58,998 nucleotides of DNA from Escherichia phage vB_Eco_SLUR25: sequence record LT907986.1, one strand, 5' to 3'. This document shows, piece by piece, positions 13,755-21,269 of this stretch. Positions within the stretch are counted from its first letter, which is position 1. Each line of letters starts with the position of its first letter. The notes under the pieces were generated by a model that saw only the letters and a list, made by a program, of their open reading frames with translations, made no database searches and was not told the DNA's origin. Both the position numbers and the translations under genes were made by a program.

Positions 13755-14510
13755 CTATTTCAAATAGCGGGAAGTCATAATTGGATGCAAAGACACTTCT
13801 TCCTCAGATGTAACCACATTGGGCTTCCCTGAGCAAGGCACTTCTAATTCAATTTCAGCTGCCCCACAGACACGGCATTGATGTAATGCAATTTCACCAT
13901 TTCTATCCTTGATGCACTCAGGGGCGTCCGGATCGCTATTAATATATAATTCATGACCGTTTATAAAAGGTCGCATATCCTGTTTACGATAAGCTACACC
14001 CGTTGACCCGAAACCATTAGCACCGCGCTCAGTAGTCTTGAGCTCGTCTACTTCTACCAGTTGCACGCAAGGCACCTTAATAAGCATAGCTTGCGCAATA
14101 CGATCACCATGACTAACGGTAAAACTACCATTATGATCAATAGTAAGCTTAACTTTAACTTCGCCAGTGTAGTCGCTATCGATGACACCTACGCAGTTAG
14201 CCAAACGAACGTCATTTTTGAATCCATGTCCACTCCGGGAATAGACCATAAGCGCATATCCTTTAGGGATATCAAATGCTAACCCTGTACGGAATACGTG
14301 CTCGTAAGAGAAAATGATTTGTTCACAACCGTCTTCACTTTTGAGATCCGCGTGCAGGTCAAAGCAAGCTGCCCCGGCAGTGGCAAACGCTGGTAGAATT
14401 GCCGTGTCAGTTAAACGTTTCACACCGACCGGAATTGTGCTTAATGATGCAGCAAGTTTTTCAACATCAATTGCAAAAGAATTTTTTGTGATATTTAATA
14501 CATCAGTCAT
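13755..14510 (-). CDS. dut: dUTP diphosphatase (dUTPase) with C-terminal Cys-containing extension
   Basis: Motifs YSRSGHG, GVIDSDYTGE, HGDRIAQ typical of trimeric dUTPases; extra ~90 aa C-terminal region with CxxC. Confidence 0.8.
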   Translation of the reverse strand: MTDVLNITKNSFAIDVEKLAASLSTIPVGVKRLTDTAILPAFATAGAACFDLHADLKSEDGCEQIIFSYEHVFRTGLAFDIPKGYALMVYSRSGHGFKNDVRLANCVGVIDSDYTGEVKVKLTIDHNGSFTVSHGDRIAQAMLIKVPCVQLVEVDELKTTERGANGFGSTGVAYRKQDMRPFINGHELYINSDPDAPECIKDRNGEIALHQCRVCGAAEIELEVPCSGKPNVVTSEEEVSLHPIMTSRYLK

Positions 14511-15092: not shown

Positions 15093-15404
15093 CTCTTGAT
15101 TGTCGGATAGCTTACTTTGACTGCCGTCTTCGTCTACCCTGGCCTACTTGTACAGCCTCGCCAAAGGCTGGTGACGGTTTGGTACATCTGGCGCCGTCTC
15201 GTTAAACATCGTTTACATCGTTCAGTAAGTTGCGGGTTTACCCTGTCCGCTCCAGGAAGCCCAGCGAAAGTAGTTGCTGTAAGGAGGTACAGCTACCGCT
15301 TTCAAGGGCTTGAGTTAAGCATCGTTCACTAAGTTAATGTTGTTAAATTGTTAAACCTCGTTAACTGTGGTTATCTTAAAGGATGCAGTCTTGAATGGCA
15401 AGCT

Positions 15405-15722
15405 TCAATTTTGCGCGGTTCCCTTTGCCGCTTTTGGTGCTAAAGTACCATCATTTAACATCAACTCAAAACCTGTTACTTGATCGGTTGGAACAATAGG
15501 GTAATTCATAATAGCCATGTGAATACAATGTCCACCGTCACATTCATCGATGTATTCATTACCCCAATAGTATAAATGCCCATCTCTTCGAATATCCATT
15601 GCCGTTGGGAAATCTACAAGAATTCTTTTAATTTCTTTTCGTCCTTCTTTATGCAGATTAGTTTCAATACGGATAAGCTCCGCATAAATTGCTTCACAGA
15701 TAGTGTTTACAATTCCCATCAT
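15405..15722 (-). CDS. hypothetical protein
   Basis: 105 aa ORF. Confidence 0.45.
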   Translation of the reverse strand: MMGIVNTICEAIYAELIRIETNLHKEGRKEIKRILVDFPTAMDIRRDGHLYYWGNEYIDECDGGHCIHMAIMNYPIVPTDQVTGFELMLNDGTLAPKAAKGTAQN

Positions 15723-15916
15723 TTACCCCTTAAGTTTTGAATCATTCTATCACAGGCAGCTTTTACAGAAGAGTTTTGCCAGTCTTCCTCAATTTGTGAA
15801 GGTTCTTCAGGTGAATAAGCAGCACTAATTAGACACTGATTATAACCTTCAATATAAGCCTGCTTTGCTGTATCTATTATTGCTTGTAAAGCAATATTGA
15901 ATAATTGTTGAGACAT
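15719..15916 (-). CDS. small hypothetical protein
   Basis: ATG at 15916 (MSQQLFNIALQ...) with GAGGTG RBS; the longer track ORF to 16090 lacks start support. Confidence 0.4.
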   Translation of the reverse strand: MSQQLFNIALQAIIDTAKQAYIEGYNQCLISAAYSPEEPSQIEEDWQNSSVKAACDRMIQNLRGK

Positions 15917-16157
15917 CTTACACCTCACAGAATATACATAAACCAGAAATAACCAGCTACGAAAATAGCACCCGCAAATAATTTTAAAAGCTCGAACATT
16001 GTTCCCTCCGTCAACTTTATGCTGTAAGTATAGCAGGACTTGCGATGTATGCAACAACTTTAGACTTGAAATACATCTATGAAATAGCACGATTTGCCTT
16101 TACCTCTGATCCGTCTAGCTGTACTATTAACCCATAAACAGAGCGGAGGATTACAAA

Positions 16158-16382
16158 ATGGTCATGCTGAATAAAGTATATAGCACAATGGGCGCGGATT
16201 ATAAAGTTGTACGTCACCCGCGTACTGGTAAATTTGAAGCATATATCCGTCCAATTGGTGAAAGTTGGATGTATTACGGTACTTATGATGATGCTGAGCA
16301 AGCTTATAAAGAAGCGGAAAGTGCCGCGGAAGCATCCGAAATTATGGCAAGGTACGACGTCGATGATTACTACCTTAACTAA
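16158..16382 (+). CDS. AP2-domain DNA-binding protein, encoded on the opposite strand inside the leftward arm
   Basis: 74 aa; GKFEAYIRPIGESWMYYGTYDDAEQAYKEAESAA matches AP2-like pattern; GGAGGA RBS; followed by strong terminator. Confidence 0.55.
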   Translation: MVMLNKVYSTMGADYKVVRHPRTGKFEAYIRPIGESWMYYGTYDDAEQAYKEAESAAEASEIMARYDVDDYYLN

Positions 16383-16387
16383 CAATA

Positions 16388-16405
16388 AAGGGCCTTTCGG
16401 CCCTT
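16388..16405. terminator. bidirectional rho-independent terminator
   Basis: Stem AAGGGCC/GGCCCTT with TTTC loop, T-rich on both sides; lies between convergent genes 16158..16382(+) and 16409..18745(-). Confidence 0.55.
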
Positions 16406-16408
16406 TAT

Positions 16409-18745
16409 TTATTTACTTAAGTCCTTGAAAACGCTCTCAATTGACTCATCTATATACCATCCCAATCCCCTGAAATTACGCTTCAACGCATCTTCACGCG
16501 TAACTGGAACGAGCGCACCCATATCTACAAGTTGTTTGATAGTAAGGTCTGTTGCAGTACCTGCTCCCATCCTGTGATTCTTGAATGCAGCTAGACCGTA
16601 AGTCCTGCGTGTGATAGTTGCCTTTGGAATAATACCGTCAACGCGCAGCTCCTTACGATCACATGCAATCTTACCGCCAAGATAGTCTTTGCAGACCTGA
16701 CAGATAGCCTTCACACGTGTTTCGTCATCACCGCCAATAGTACCTTTTTCCCATGCGTTGATCATAATGTCCTGACCGTGCGTAACAAAATCTACCGCCC
16801 ATTGCATGTGGTTTGGTTGCACCACAGGATTGATCCAGTTTTCCCCCACCGCTAACAGAGAAGCAAGACGCAAAGCTTTAAGGTGTGCACGGTTCCACGG
16901 CTGACGGATTGCTTCGTCTTTGGTTGCGTTGATGTGTTCATCACATAACAGGTTAAACTCCCGTTCAATCCTTTCAGCTTCAGGGCTTAACTGGACTGTG
17001 ACAGTTTGAAACTTCGCCATTGTTACTAAGGTGTGGTTAACAAGATGGCACACCATGTCCTTTAACTGCTGGGGCATTATAATCTCAGGGTTTTCATTTG
17101 CAGGAACTCGATCTCCTTCATATTGCACAATGTGGAAACGGGACAAGAAACCGTCTTCCATCATTTCACGAGTTAATGCTTCAAAGAAAGTGTCCGGTGT
17201 TGTTTCTCCCAGCACGCTGAACGCTACCCCTTCCATCGTTTTGGTATTATTAGCCTTATCAGAATATCCAATACCGCCAACAACATCCATTGCGCCAGAT
17301 TTTTGATATACATCTGTGATAGTTTGCTTTAGAGTATAGTTTGCAGTACCAGGCTGAGCTGTTGCCATACCTTTGATGGTTTTGCCAAACTCTCCGTTAA
17401 TGTTCACAAACGAACTATGATCCGCAAAACTTTTACGCAATGCAGGACCGGACGCATAGTTAGTCATGTCTACAAATTCATGAACTTGCGGTAATTGCTC
17501 CCCTACTTGCTTGCAAATATAGCTGGGTCCGGCGTGAAGCATCTCTTTACCCACACCTGAGCGAGCGATAAGCACAAAGTAACCGTTCAGCCCTGTGTTG
17601 GTGATAGTATTCCATACCTTACCGCACACACCAGACAGAAATGCTAACGATGCGGTGATTGCAATTTCTTTCACCGGACGTTGCGATGCTTTGTAGATGT
17701 ACTTCGCAAGCTCCCCAGCAAGCCCCGGCGGCCACTCAATAGCGGTTGCATCAATAGACGTACTTTCTGCAACTACTATTTGACCGGAAGGACTAACTGT
17801 GGTTACAGGCATCTCGGTTACTTGCTGCATTGTGCTGTGTGCGGCTTGCATACGGGCAGCGTAATCCCGCGCCAGCGCAGCTACGTTTTCCTGGGCAATG
17901 CGCTCACGCTCCATGCGACCTCGACACATACGCAAGCAACGGTCAATATGAACATTGTTCTTATTAGCCTTCTCACGTTTGCCCAGTGCACTATAACGGA
18001 ACAGACGGCGACATTGCTCATTACTTTCCGTGTAGAATGCATACATAGAAATGAGGGCAAGGTCTGCTTCAGACTGGGAAGGGAAACCCATTTCAACCCA
18101 TTCACCATTAAATAACCGCGCATACTTATCGCCGTTGTCTGCTTCAAGTGCACGCTGATGAATAGTTGCATCATCTTCTACCGGATCTTTTTCTACCAGT
18201 TCAATTTCATATGTCTTGCGCTGAAGATCAATTTCATTCACAAGCATAGTAAGGTAATGATCACGTTCTGCAACTGGTTTGTTGTAGACAGGATTACCAG
18301 TGCAGATAATAAAACGCTCCTGACTATAAACCTCGACACCATCACGTCGACGACCTTTACCGATGTTACCTCTTAACCACAGGTGAACACCCAAGCCTGA
18401 GCGACTCACTTCGGTGTAAGTATCGAACGCAGTCATGATCTGTTCGAAGCGGCGCAACTGTTCCGGCGTCGTGTGCTTTTTGGGATCCGGTTCATTGGTT
18501 GCATTCTTCACATCCAGGTCGATGCAGGTGAACGGGTCTTGTGCGGTAAGCACAAAGCCAATATAAGGTTTATTGAAATGAGCGGCACAACCTTTGGCAG
18601 CTTCAAACGTCATAAGCATATCCGGATCGGTAACGTCCGCCGCCATCAAACGTCCAATATCGTTATCCCATACGAGCGGTTTTTTATCCGCATCGGCGAC
18701 CGCCCATTGTGGGAAAGCTTTAATTTCAGCGGGAAACAGTTCCAT
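16409..18745 (-). CDS. DNA primase/helicase (primase-polymerase-like N-terminus, D5/DUF3987-like helicase C-terminus)
   Basis: 778 aa from ATG 18745; Walker A-like GVGKE; overall size and architecture typical of phage primase-helicases; family assignment from memory. Confidence 0.6.
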   Translation of the reverse strand: MELFPAEIKAFPQWAVADADKKPLVWDNDIGRLMAADVTDPDMLMTFEAAKGCAAHFNKPYIGFVLTAQDPFTCIDLDVKNATNEPDPKKHTTPEQLRRFEQIMTAFDTYTEVSRSGLGVHLWLRGNIGKGRRRDGVEVYSQERFIICTGNPVYNKPVAERDHYLTMLVNEIDLQRKTYEIELVEKDPVEDDATIHQRALEADNGDKYARLFNGEWVEMGFPSQSEADLALISMYAFYTESNEQCRRLFRYSALGKREKANKNNVHIDRCLRMCRGRMERERIAQENVAALARDYAARMQAAHSTMQQVTEMPVTTVSPSGQIVVAESTSIDATAIEWPPGLAGELAKYIYKASQRPVKEIAITASLAFLSGVCGKVWNTITNTGLNGYFVLIARSGVGKEMLHAGPSYICKQVGEQLPQVHEFVDMTNYASGPALRKSFADHSSFVNINGEFGKTIKGMATAQPGTANYTLKQTITDVYQKSGAMDVVGGIGYSDKANNTKTMEGVAFSVLGETTPDTFFEALTREMMEDGFLSRFHIVQYEGDRVPANENPEIIMPQQLKDMVCHLVNHTLVTMAKFQTVTVQLSPEAERIEREFNLLCDEHINATKDEAIRQPWNRAHLKALRLASLLAVGENWINPVVQPNHMQWAVDFVTHGQDIMINAWEKGTIGGDDETRVKAICQVCKDYLGGKIACDRKELRVDGIIPKATITRRTYGLAAFKNHRMGAGTATDLTIKQLVDMGALVPVTREDALKRNFRGLGWYIDESIESVFKDLSK

Positions 18746-18747
18746 TA

Positions 18748-18972
18748 TCAGCCTCGCATCATTGCAGGACCGCAAGACCGTAATGCTTCAACAAATTGTT
18801 CTGCATTACTTTTTATAGCTTTGACAGCATTTTGTGCATCCAGGTAAGATTCAAACTTGCCCAAATAAAGGATCTTACCAGCCACCATGACGTGAGCGGT
18901 ACGAGCAACGTTTCCACCAATGTAGTACCCGTTACGTTTTAAAAGTGTTAACTGTTCGTCATTAAGAGCCAT
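18748..18972 (-). CDS. hypothetical protein (possible AP2-like fold)
   Basis: ATG at 18972 (MALNDEQLTLL...) with GGAGGA upstream. Confidence 0.4.
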   Translation of the reverse strand: MALNDEQLTLLKRNGYYIGGNVARTAHVMVAGKILYLGKFESYLDAQNAVKAIKSNAEQFVEALRSCGPAMMRG

Positions 18973-19264
18973 AGATCTGTTTCCTCCGCCATTCTTCGTA
19001 TGCTGAATTATTTGCGTCATATACTTCACAAGCGTCTTTCATGCTGTCATACAGTCCAAGGAAAGTTCGCCTTGTTTCTCCGCCTACATCTACCCATGTT
19101 AATCGGGCGAGCCATTTACCAGTTTTATAATCGAAAGTAACTCCCTCACGCCCGCTCACATTTTCCCGCGGAACTCGGGGCTTTCGGCGTCCGAGTCCAC
19201 GACCTTTGAAATTACTACCCGGAACAGTCCTGCACTTACGACCCACGACCAACCTCCGGCACAA
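18962..19264 (-). CDS. AP2-domain DNA-binding protein (start TTG 19264 or GTG 19246)
   Basis: GVTFDYKTGKWLARLTWVDVGGETRRTFLGLYDSMKDACEVYD matches AP2 pattern; only non-ATG starts available; overlaps 3' end of upstream HTH gene. Confidence 0.5.
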   Translation of the reverse strand: MCRRLVVGRKCRTVPGSNFKGRGLGRRKPRVPRENVSGREGVTFDYKTGKWLARLTWVDVGGETRRTFLGLYDSMKDACEVYDANNSAYEEWRRKQIYGS

Positions 19265-19451
19265 CCCGGCCAGCGTGCAACATTAAGACAGGTTCTGCAA
19301 CTGCACGAACATAGACATACACGTTAGCAATCTTAACTTCGCCCGGCAGCTTACCGCGAAGCGAACATAATTTGCGACGACTAAGACCGAAGCGGTTTTC
19401 AATTTCTGATGTGGTTATGTATTTAAGATCAAATTCTTTTTGACAGTCCAT
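19236..19451 (-). CDS. small helix-turn-helix DNA-binding protein, first gene of leftward arm
   Basis: 71 aa; ITTSEIENRFGLSRRKLCSL is HTH-like; GGAGG RBS 5 nt before ATG at 19451. Confidence 0.5.
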   Translation of the reverse strand: MDCQKEFDLKYITTSEIENRFGLSRRKLCSLRGKLPGEVKIANVYVYVRAVAEPVLMLHAGRVVPEVGRGS

Positions 19452-20279
19452 ACCTACCTCCTAACAGCACTATACACAATCCATAGTAGGTCAGCCACAA
19501 TTATTCCACCTGAAGTTATAATGTGAGCGGATTGTTAATATATAACCACATGTGATGGAAAGTTTTGGGTAGGAATAGTTGGTGCTCCACAGTTTGCACA
19601 ATGTGACGGAAAGTTTTGTGAGTTTTGCAAAGTTTTGCGAAGTTTTGTGGTGCCACTGTTGCTAAAAACTTTAATAAAAACAATAAGTTGGTGCAGTAAG
19701 TTTTTGCGTTTTGGGGTAAAACGCATTTTTTACCCTAATACCCTAATCCCGACTGTTAGTAAAAAACGTATATAAATCAATAGGATAGATACTAAATGAA
19801 TAGTGAATGGAATGGGTAGAAATCCAAATGATGGAAGTGGAATAAATTATTCCTACTTGATGGAATAATGGAATCGGTACTCTGGAGCGCAAAAACCTAA
19901 AACTTTCAGTCAACAGACTAAAAACGGATAGAAACTAAAAGTTAATAAGTAATAGCATAAATATATATAAAATAAGGATTTATTAGTAATGTATATAGTA
20001 CCTATTGGTATTATTTGAATGTTTTTGGGTCTGCAACAAAAAGTCGCAAAACTCACAAAAAGTGAAAGATAACAATTCGTGACAAGATTGTTAATGGAAT
20101 AGGGTGTATGGATATACAGTATTATTCCAGATTCCGGAATAATTGGAATAATGGAATAAATTATTGAACTATTGTGATCGGAATGTATATCAAGCTATAA
20201 TGCGCTTAATCGCGGGATATTGGAGGAGGACTTTATTGCGCGGTTAACCGGACCAGTAGGAGGGCTGGCCCGGAGTAGT
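19452..20279. promoter_or_regulatory. 830-bp non-coding control region: phased GTTTTG repeats, TGGAATA palindromes, AT-rich core, 15-bp long-range inverted repeat (origin/early promoter region candidate)
   Basis: GTTTTG at 19561, 19612, 19621, 19631, 19642 (about 10-bp phasing); palindromes GGAATAAATTATTCC (19838..19852) and ATTCCGGAAT (20130..20139); TTTTGTGAGTTTTGC (19613..19627) inverted at 20045..20059; AT-rich 19925..20000. Confidence 0.5.
19705..19730 (+). terminator. terminator-like hairpin plus T-tract on plus strand inside control region
   Basis: GCGTTTT-GGGGT-AAAACGC followed by ATTTTTT. Confidence 0.4.
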
Positions 20280-20480
20280 TTAGAGCTGTACAGGTATGAA
20301 GTGGGCTAATGTGTCGTCGGACATGATACCCGACAATTTTTCGCTTACCCATTCGGACCAAATGCTATCCGGTTCCTGGCGGTGTACAAACCAGATTTCG
20401 GATGTGCCTTCTTTGCGCATCGGCTGCACTTCTACAAGAAACTTGTCCTGCATGAGGCGGGTGAAGCATACGCTGGTCAT
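20280..20480 (-). CDS. hypothetical protein
   Basis: 66 aa ORF; weak RBS. Confidence 0.35.
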   Translation of the reverse strand: MTSVCFTRLMQDKFLVEVQPMRKEGTSEIWFVHRQEPDSIWSEWVSEKLSGIMSDDTLAHFIPVQL

Positions 20481-20654
20481 TGGAACTGGCTTTTCGTGTT
20501 TATTGTAATAAGGAGTCAGTAATTTATTTCCGAAGTTAGCAACTTCATAAACAGTTCCTTTGCGAAGACCTCTGATGTCTGTGTAAGAGCGATAAATGTT
20601 TTCATGTTTACTCCTAGGGCTCCCGCAGAAGCCGTTGGTTGATGTGGTTATAGA

Positions 20655-21269
20655 TTATGCGTCCAGTCCGTTGTACTTGCGCCAGGCGTAGAACTGAATG
20701 GCAACCGTTGTTCCGTTGTAAGAAGGCATTGCAGCTTTCATTTCTTTCAGCTCCGGCGTGCGGCCCAGTTCGGCTAAAAGTTTGTCGCCCATTGCCCACA
20801 CTTCGGCGGTTTTTCCTTTCAGAGGCTTGCGAGCGCCATTTTTGAAATCACAGCGAGCAGCTTTTGCATCCTGTTTTGGTGCGGCAGCTTTTGGCTCTTC
20901 AATTTTGATTTCAGAAACCTGCGTGGCAGCTTTTGCATGTTTCATATCTTTCTCTTCCTCCTGCTCCAGGGCTTCGAGGCAGCTTTTGACGATTTCCGGA
21001 TTTACCATCGGGCGCAGTACCGAGACGCTGGCAGCTGGCGCGGCGGTCGGTGCCGGGACTTTCTGCTCCGGTTGTTGCGCTTTTTTATGGTCGCGCAGCA
21101 CCTGAAGCACTTCCTTCTCGACGATGTAAAAACCGATTTCGTCCTGATGGATAAGCTGTTCGTGTGCATCGCGTGCAACCTGGCCCCAGCGGGTCTTAAG
21201 GGCGCGGCGTGCATTCGTTTTCATGGTGTAACGCATTTTGTCCTGTTCGCGGTGAGTTACTTTAGACAT
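20655..21269 (-). CDS. hypothetical protein with Ala/Lys/Glu-rich middle and C-terminal domain shared with 4326..5129 product
   Basis: ATG at 21269 (MSKVTHREQ...) with AGGAG RBS; C-terminus NGARKP...W...LGRTP...TV.IQFYAWRKYNG. Confidence 0.5.
   Translation of the reverse strand: MSKVTHREQDKMRYTMKTNARRALKTRWGQVARDAHEQLIHQDEIGFYIVEKEVLQVLRDHKKAQQPEQKVPAPTAAPAASVSVLRPMVNPEIVKSCLEALEQEEEKDMKHAKAATQVSEIKIEEPKAAAPKQDAKAARCDFKNGARKPLKGKTAEVWAMGDKLLAELGRTPELKEMKAAMPSYNGTTVAIQFYAWRKYNGLDA

Follow-up and report, generated by a model that had tools for sequence, protein, structure and literature searches.

Three short open reading frames (ORFs) beside the primase gene of a coliphage, here called ORFs A, B and C, probably represent free-standing phage genes of the AP2 fold, further cases of a known sort of protein. 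They lie in the window, i.e. the whole stretch of 58,998 nucleotides (nt) analysed here (LT907986.1), which is a rotated copy of the record of Escherichia phage vB_Eco_SLUR63 (LR025196.1; 58,998 bp; Seuratvirus, Queuovirinae). Window positions 15400..20300 are 100% identical to that record, and this region is common to 37 phage records, nearly all of them E. coli Seuratviruses. In the following, SLUR63 denotes the phage of the window, and ORF coordinates are window positions. The best explanation overall, to which we give a probability of roughly 0.6, is that ORF A would be a counter-defence gene, that ORFs B and C would encode DNA-binding proteins of the primase operon, and that all three would share a common origin with the DNA-binding modules of HNH-AP2 homing endonucleases circulating in Seuratvirus. 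The three ORFs are:

16158..16382, plus strand: ORF A, 74 amino acids (aa), acidic, AP2 fold, phrog_22269, orthologue of ORF65 of phage Dru_SM1 (DruSM1)
18748..18972, minus strand: ORF B, 74 aa, mildly basic, AP2-like, ATG start
18962..19246, minus strand: ORF C, 94 aa, strongly basic, AP2, with an Arg/Lys-rich N-terminal arm and a GTG start

Their coordinates, and those of a 71-aa gene that overlaps ORF C, were confirmed; each of the four is a "hypothetical protein" in LR025196.1.

An earlier note on this DNA had pointed to AP2-like patterns in 16158..16382, 18962..19264 and 18748..18972, and had proposed a search with an AP2 profile. With the Pfam AP2 model (PF00847; gathering threshold 33.3 bits), the scores of ORF A (19.2 bits, E=1.6e-3) and of ORF C (21.8 bits, E=2.3e-4) lay below the cut-off, and ORF B gave no match. 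SA80RD_69, a genuine phage endonuclease with HNH_3 and AP2 domains, itself scores only 19.0 bits with this model, and the Pfam AP2 model therefore under-detects phage AP2 domains. A phage AP2 hidden Markov model (HMM) was built from the AP2 domains of five sister-phage HNH-AP2 endonucleases, none of them from the window, and searched against all 989 six-frame stop-to-stop segments (at least 30 aa) of the window. It picked exactly the three ORFs of the earlier note, with ORF C first (E=1.6e-8), followed by ORF A (1.5e-4) and ORF B (5.2e-4), while the fourth segment reached 0.86. Since the top three stand clear of this noise, ORFs A, B and C are the only AP2-like ORFs in the genome.

Other comparisons gave the same assignment. 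Alignment with hhalign against the phage AP2 alignment gave 96% for ORF C, 82% for ORF A and 76.5% for ORF B, and in a column-shuffle control none of 150 shuffles reached the observed score for any of the three. In pairwise BLASTP, the matches of A, B and C always fell in the AP2 segment of the endonucleases, and the closest relatives of their AP2 segments are the AP2 domains of the sister-phage HNH-AP2 endonucleases. A phmmer search with ORF A in 1.84 billion representative proteins returned 19 proteins at E<=1e-3; three are small relatives, and the others that were scanned, matched at 6.8e-11 to 7e-4, contain several AP2 domains each and reach 1e-16 to 1e-64 with the Pfam AP2 model. The AP2 protein WRI1 was the best match of both ORF A and ORF C in PDB sequences, and the lists also include AtERF1 and ERF096 for ORF A and Toxoplasma AP2VIIb-2 for ORF C. 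The predicted structure of ORF A is an AP2 fold, with a three-stranded antiparallel sheet packed on a C-terminal helix; the alignments used for structure prediction were shallow, because word-indexed homologue searches gave near-identical proteins only (three matches for A, one for B and two for C). A Foldseek search of BFVD found many uncharacterised phage proteins of 55–75 aa with the same fold, none of known function, and a scan of IMG/VR with the ORF A family returned close relatives only. We consider the AP2 assignment of ORFs A and C solid.

ORF B has the weakest support of the three, and its assignment is a prediction from profile evidence: its AP2 homology is visible only via the phage AP2 profile, through a match of 27 columns. 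Such a match could have arisen by chance from the short pattern "YLG.Y....A" in a protein of unrelated fold, and it is in keeping with this that ORF B has no match in Pfam, PHROG, NCBIfam or PDB sequences. We think this unlikely. ORF B is separated by a wide gap from the noise among the 989 segments, its hhalign score was not reached by any shuffle, its homologue from KS_A8-type phages independently matches the same AP2 segment at 2e-4, and the order of its predicted secondary-structure elements fits AP2.

The four genes show the conservation expected of functional sequences. ORF A is present at full length and with at least 92% identity in 33/33 Seuratvirus records, and in STP-SP5, a divergent Salmonella phage, the same convergent position beside the primase is taken by a copy with 38% identity. 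ORF C is intact and 95–97% identical in 9 phages and also occurs in L011 and L017, two metagenomic relatives used for comparison, where it starts with ATG; homologues of ORF B, 33–44% identical, lie in the same slot in about 10 phages and in L017. The ratio of nonsynonymous to synonymous substitution (dN/dS) was 0.19 for ORF A, 0.31–0.36 for ORF B and 0.18–0.28 for the 71-aa gene, and for ORF C nonsynonymous divergence (pN) was 0.18 against a synonymous divergence (pS) of 0.84. Nonsynonymous change is thus well under synonymous change in all four, and each is intact in every relative examined, so that "remnant", in the sense of decay, finds no support.

The other features of the locus are:

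16045..16137, plus strand: 30-aa upstream ORF or 5′ leader of ORF A, counterpart of DruSM1 PH_ORF69
16145..16149, plus strand: Shine-Dalgarno sequence GGAGG of ORF A, 8 nt before the ATG
16384..16409, both strands: bidirectional intrinsic terminator serving both ORF A and the primase; U-rich tracts flank its 11-bp stem
16409..18745, minus strand: primase/helicase, 778 aa (phrog_3022 at 2.6e-247; Pfam DUF3987 plus NrS-1 polymerase HBD domain)
19257..19253, minus strand: Shine-Dalgarno sequence GGAGG of ORF C, 6 nt before GTG 19246
19236..19451, minus strand: candidate 71-aa basic helix-turn-helix (HTH)-like protein, ATG start with AGGAGG 5 nt upstream, heading the primase operon
19452..20279, no strand: non-coding repeat region of about 830 nt upstream of the primase operon, with candidate cis sites

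The arrangement and conservation of ORF A support its prediction as a real, separately expressed plus-strand gene. The earlier note had credited it with its own ribosome-binding site and a bidirectional terminator, and both were found. The GGAGG is invariant among 7 aligned phages, the divergent STP-SP5 included, and the 26-nt terminator fills the entire gap between the convergent stop codons of ORF A and the primase: the stop codon of ORF A ends one base before the hairpin, and that of the primase abuts it. The hairpin is labelled bidirectional in the records of phages Seurat and SA80RD. ORF A had also been placed inside a minus-strand operon, which is not the case, as it sits between two minus-strand transcription units; upstream of it lies a divergent intergenic region, and the neighbouring minus-strand unit begins at 15916. 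The 30-aa frame at 16045..16137 has 93% identity to DruSM1 PH_ORF69 (tblastn). In STP-SP5 this frame is broken and the DNA block is conserved, and the segment is therefore likelier a promoter or leader than a protein. Hand-picked promoter candidates for ORF A were dropped because they are not kept in STP-SP5, and no promoter is claimed. ORF A would thus be a genus-wide accessory gene in a plus-strand mini-unit made up of conserved leader, Shine-Dalgarno sequence, gene and common bidirectional terminator.

The function proposed for ORF A comes from its orthologue. The ORF65 protein of DruSM1, labelled "ORF65 (PH_ORF70)" in GenBank, is 95.9% identical to ORF A over 74/74 residues and has the same neighbours; like ORF A, the gene encodes 74 aa on the plus strand, convergent with the primase, behind the same 30-aa upstream ORF. 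By identity and synteny, ORF A is a member of the anti-Hhe ORF65 family (phrog_22269), and nothing material differs between the two in sequence. According to the accessible text of a 2024 preprint by Ojima et al. (10.1101/2024.04.14.589459), deletion of ORF65 in a knock-out library is viable, lowers the efficiency of plating (EOP) 1000-fold (10^-3) with small plaques on hhe-bearing cells, and weakens escape from Druantia type I, an effect smaller than that seen with Hhe. Deletion of PH_ORF69 just upstream also lowers EOP on hhe cells, and among the viable knock-outs that text describes an Hhe phenotype only for ORF65 and this upstream leader (10.1101/2024.04.14.589459). The product of hhe is a very large protein (residue E1731 was mutated in the study) with a Vsr-type nuclease domain. 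By this orthology, ORF A would be a non-essential counter-defence factor against the Hhe helicase/Vsr-nuclease and, less so, against Druantia I. The same text counts ORF65 as an anti-defence gene and gives it the HHpred label "SplA" (10.1101/2024.04.14.589459). A SplA identity was rejected for ORF A, which has no Pfam SplA match at E<=1; the AP2 fold is assigned in place of the "SplA-like regulator" label.

The ORF A family is acidic. The isoelectric point (pI) is 4.6 for ORF A and 4.2 for the STP-SP5 copy, and the net charge in the family ranges from -5 to -10. An N-terminal strand, MVMLN..YS, and the residues R31, W37, A49 and E61 are invariant. On the sheet the DNA-contact set is partly kept: besides the invariant R31 and W37 there are conserved K16 and K/R25, and R19, which we take to be the counterpart of the main DNA-contact arginine of AtERF1, is variable. 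The first nine residues, MVMLNKVYS (16158..16184), show little or no variation, including in relatives with only 36–56% identity elsewhere, a constancy that points either to an interaction motif or to a constraint on the nucleotide sequence or on translation initiation.

Given the AP2 fold and the AP2 homology of ORF A, it could be a sequence-specific DNA-binding transcription regulator whose effects on Hhe and Druantia are indirect, via other phage or host genes. The conserved K16, K/R25, R31 and W37 on its sheet agree with this, as does the label given to ORF65 in the preprint, SplA being a transcriptional regulator. In the preprint's account, moreover, ORF65 deletion hits two unrelated systems, Hhe and Druantia I, which regulation, e.g. 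of ORF71/Druad1, explains more easily. Phage AP2 proteins can silence defence genes, as the CasPRs show; these anti-CRISPR repressors with CapR and AP2 domains bring AP2 domains into phage counter-defence (bioRxiv 10.64898/2026.02.23.707548). CasPRs, which come from Bacillota prophages, bind DNA as basic proteins, depend on the Cys-rich CapR domain and repress the transcription of cas genes (10.64898/2026.02.23.707548), whereas ORF A is acidic, lacks CapR and belongs to a lytic coliphage. The conserved CapR cysteines are missing: ORF A contains no cysteine at all, and in ORFs B and C there are just one or two, at scattered positions. The strongly negative charge of the family, with pI values of 4.2–4.6, speaks against a regulator, and so does the lack of conservation at R19, presumably the position of the main AtERF1 contact. 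So does the restriction of the Hhe phenotype to ORF65 and its leader among the viable knock-outs described in the preprint. For a strictly lytic phage, silencing the transcription of a defence protein that has already been made would be of little help. We regard this regulator as a possible but doubtful explanation, which nevertheless deserves more weight than the other alternatives considered here. Counter-defence at the protein level is preferred: ORF A would bind a protein, either Hhe itself or its trigger, rather than act as a classical transcription factor, and this is the likelier mode because the protein is acidic and has only part of the DNA-contact set. The earlier note had suggested that free-standing phage AP2 proteins often mark transcription regulators or homing-endonuclease remnants, and for ORF A both suggestions run against the anti-defence (anti-Hhe) genetics of its orthologue and its acidic character.

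On the minus strand, the primase operon runs in the order 71-aa gene, ORF C, ORF B and primase/helicase. The 71-aa gene and ORF C overlap by 11 nt, as do ORF C and ORF B, and each gene of this coupled set has its own Shine-Dalgarno sequence and start codon. It was correctly noted before that ORF C has only GTG and TTG starts; the 29-nt overlap deduced from TTG 19264 is corrected to 11 nt, as the start is likely GTG 19246 behind GGAGG, which the records of both SLUR63 and Skure annotate.

This overlap and the lack of an ATG in the ORF C of SLUR63 had raised the possibility of a programmed frameshift joining the HTH-like gene to ORF C in an HTH-AP2 fusion, and in STP-SP5 a 151-aa protein, whose AP2 C-terminus resembles ORF C, has an additional domain at its N-terminus and could be taken as such a product. 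A fusion is very improbable. GGAGG stands 6 nt ahead of GTG 19246, and the codon aligned with this GTG is ATG in L011 (MGRKCRTV...). The ORF C homologue of L017 has its ATG start within an ATGA-type overlap, and its frame is offset by +2, compared with +1 in SLUR63. No slippery heptamer was found in the 45-nt overlap window 19282..19238. Upstream of the 151-aa gene, STP-SP5 retains an HTH-like gene in its own right (73 aa), whose product shows no similarity to the N-terminus of the longer protein. The locus thus has none of the hallmarks of programmed frameshifting, namely a slippery site, a conserved frame relation and the lack of an independent downstream start. Independent, translationally coupled initiation of the 71-aa gene and ORF C is the simple reading.

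The HTH label itself, taken from the earlier note, found no significant profile support. The 71-aa gene belongs to phrog_11967, a family of unknown function, and its protein has no significant match in Pfam, NCBIfam or PDB profiles. Among PDB profiles, the best matches, neither of them significant, were the HTH segments of SigF (region 4; E=0.35) and LsrR (E=1), and one member of the protein family matches AbiEi_4 at E=0.049. An HTH-like pattern is seen by eye in residues 12–36. A putative HTH is plausible but unproven.

The products of the operon genes are basic, with pI values of 9.3 for ORF B, 10.0 for ORF C and 9.4 for the 71-aa protein. ORFs C and B would be DNA-binding proteins, coupled by the 11-nt overlaps to the HTH-like protein that heads the primase operon. 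The repeat region 19452..20279 upstream of them contains 6 of the 10 copies of TGGAATAA in the window and 4 of its 7 copies of AAGTTTTG, together with two 18-nt copies of AAAACTTTCC(G/A)TCACAT on the minus strand, 51 nt apart. Both motif clusters occur in 5/5 genomes with a SLUR63-type HTH and a C-type protein (SLUR63, Skure, ECP2304, L011 and STP-SP5). In Seurat, CAjan, SA80RD and KS_A8 types both clusters are absent, and DruSM1 has the GGAATAA cluster only. The co-occurrence of repeats and proteins would fit cognate protein-site pairs at an operator or an origin. B and C, which belong to a swap-prone cassette, may bind this region and either regulate the operon or mark a replication origin.

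Viewed on its own, the region holds two systems of repeats, one of GGAATAA (8 copies, counting both orientations) and one of AAGTTTTG (4 copies), which look like iterons or operators of a candidate origin/promoter module.

ORFs B and C lie in a variable cassette between the 71-aa "HTH" gene and the primase. In Skure and L011 the layout is HTH, C and a different protein of 89–95 aa; in ECP2304, HTH, C, an 81-aa protein and an HNH_3+AP2 endonuclease; in the KS_A8 type, a 242-aa protein, a second HTH type and a B-like protein of 70 aa; in Seurat and CAjan, a 260-aa protein and HTH only; and in SA80RD and DruSM1, a protein of about 247 aa, HTH and HNH_3+AP2. The first 16 residues of the HNH_3+AP2 endonuclease are the same as the first 16 of the primase, MELFPAEIKAFPQWAV (endonuclease loci L002:5174-5698 in SA80RD, L006:4348-4872 in ECP2304 and L008:6279-6803 in DruSM1; primase start at 18745 in the window). 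Since the endonuclease opens with MELFPAEIKAFPQWAV, this indicates an insertion inside the primase 5′ end that would have duplicated that end. SLUR63 appears to carry the uninvaded primase allele; no complete HNH-AP2 gene was detectable with the AP2 profile among its 989 segments.

Two further observations concern this cassette. The B-slot proteins of Skure and ECP2304 were tried as AP2 proteins and were not counted, being suggestive only (E=5e-3, with 1/150 shuffles reaching the score). The 242–260-aa protein that precedes the second HTH type (L005:1004-1732 in KS_A8, L003:5124-5906 for Seurat gp62 and L008:7075-7818 in DruSM1) ends, by eye, in a strand-strand-helix pattern resembling AP2, e.g. 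TATAIRVKLGAHWVDLAIYRDAEQAKN.

The link to homing endonucleases drawn in the earlier note is borne out insofar as the closest AP2 relatives are HNH-AP2 endonucleases, one of which occupies the same slot; the idea of a decayed remnant is not. In its strongest form, ORFs B and C would be inert leftovers of HNH-AP2 homing endonucleases that have lost the nuclease and hitch-hike beside the primase. Their best matches are indeed the AP2 segments of these enzymes, ORF C has the junction motif "N.SG..GV", an intact HNH-AP2 gene sits in the slot in SA80RD, ECP2304 and DruSM1, the slot varies greatly, and among 5.8 billion proteins ORF B is unique. Inert leftovers are nonetheless quite unlikely: B and C are intact in every carrier, the high identity of ORF C in 9 phages and its ATG start in L011 and L017 do not suggest decay, the substitution patterns of both are those of purifying selection, and each is coupled to its neighbours and equipped with a Shine-Dalgarno sequence and start codon of its own. 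No vestigial HNH sequence was found in B or C, and a search for the HNH_3 domain gave no match in ORFs A, B or C, compared with 3.8e-21 and 6.1e-23 for the sister-phage endonucleases. A bolder reading recasts the AP2 fold as an acidic inhibitor, with ORF A binding Hhe or hiding its trigger, and ORFs B and C as nuclease-less site occupants, retained in just the slot at the primase 5′ end that HNH-AP2 endonucleases invade, where they would shield that target from homing or else bind the co-inherited repeats as an origin or operator; as a whole we consider it rather improbable.

Compared with known systems, the three ORFs differ from classical AP2/ERF proteins (PF00847; AtERF1, 2GCC; WRI1, 7WQ5; TEM1, 7ET4) in being free-standing proteins of 74–94 aa that fall below the gathering threshold, and ORF A differs further in its acidity and its extra invariant N-terminal strand (MVMLNKVYS). 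Unlike the Seuratvirus HNH_3+AP2 endonucleases (e.g. SA80RD_69 and the CAjan homing endonuclease), their closest AP2 relatives, they have no HNH domain. For the integrase arm-type binding domain (HPI integrase, 3JTZ; lambda Int N-terminal class), neither an integrase catalytic domain nor a sequence-level match was found here.

Several points weigh against the overall explanation that we favour, i.e. counter-defence for ORF A and DNA binding for B and C. None of ORFs A, B and C reaches the gathering score of Pfam AP2. A scan for sigma-70-type promoters of ORF A found none, the promoter counts being at or below shuffle expectation. Conservation of K16, K/R25 and R31 on the sheet keeps DNA binding by ORF A possible. 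The anti-Hhe phenotype is known from DruSM1, through a preprint, and would apply to SLUR63 by analogy; complementation of ORF65 is not described in the accessible preprint text (10.1101/2024.04.14.589459). The co-occurrence of repeats and proteins may equally be plain linkage, as DNA homology extends over the entire module, STP-SP5 included. Taken together, the observation made in the earlier note is confirmed and its interpretation is partly supported, while the fusion, the decay and the regulator or endonuclease-remnant role of ORF A are not upheld.

Some neighbouring genes also deserve mention. In the public record, 19452..20654 carries no annotation. On the minus strand of the window, 20283..20606 encodes a homologue of Seurat gp63 (phrog_25978, 108 aa) with 92% identity over residues 6–108, and its ATG (MKTFI) lies in another frame, implying a 1-nt indel near codon 5; this break may be either a real 5′ frameshift/pseudogene or a sequencing error. 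Further on, 20655..21269 (minus strand) encodes a 204-aa protein 98% identical to DruSM1 NGRRMQZB_79, which by gene order is probably ORF72 of the preprint (anti-BREX type I, "KfrA_N"). The dUTPase at 13755..14510 (minus strand) has 251 aa against about 195 aa in Seurat, SA80RD and DruSM1, and its extra C-terminal ~55 residues include a CxxC motif.

For one of the three AP2 genes, ORF A, a function has already been reported from a sister phage, and the locus is otherwise ordinary phage mosaicism. For annotation, the Pfam AP2 model misses phage AP2 minigenes that a small phage-specific profile recovers cleanly, and recognition of the hot spot just upstream of the primase gene, at which AP2 modules with or without an HNH nuclease are swapped, helps the annotation of Queuovirinae. 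The same hot spot informs thinking on how the DNA-binding modules of homing endonucleases are domesticated. The AP2 fold is now assigned to a genus-wide Seuratvirus gene whose orthologue reportedly counters the poorly understood Hhe defence.

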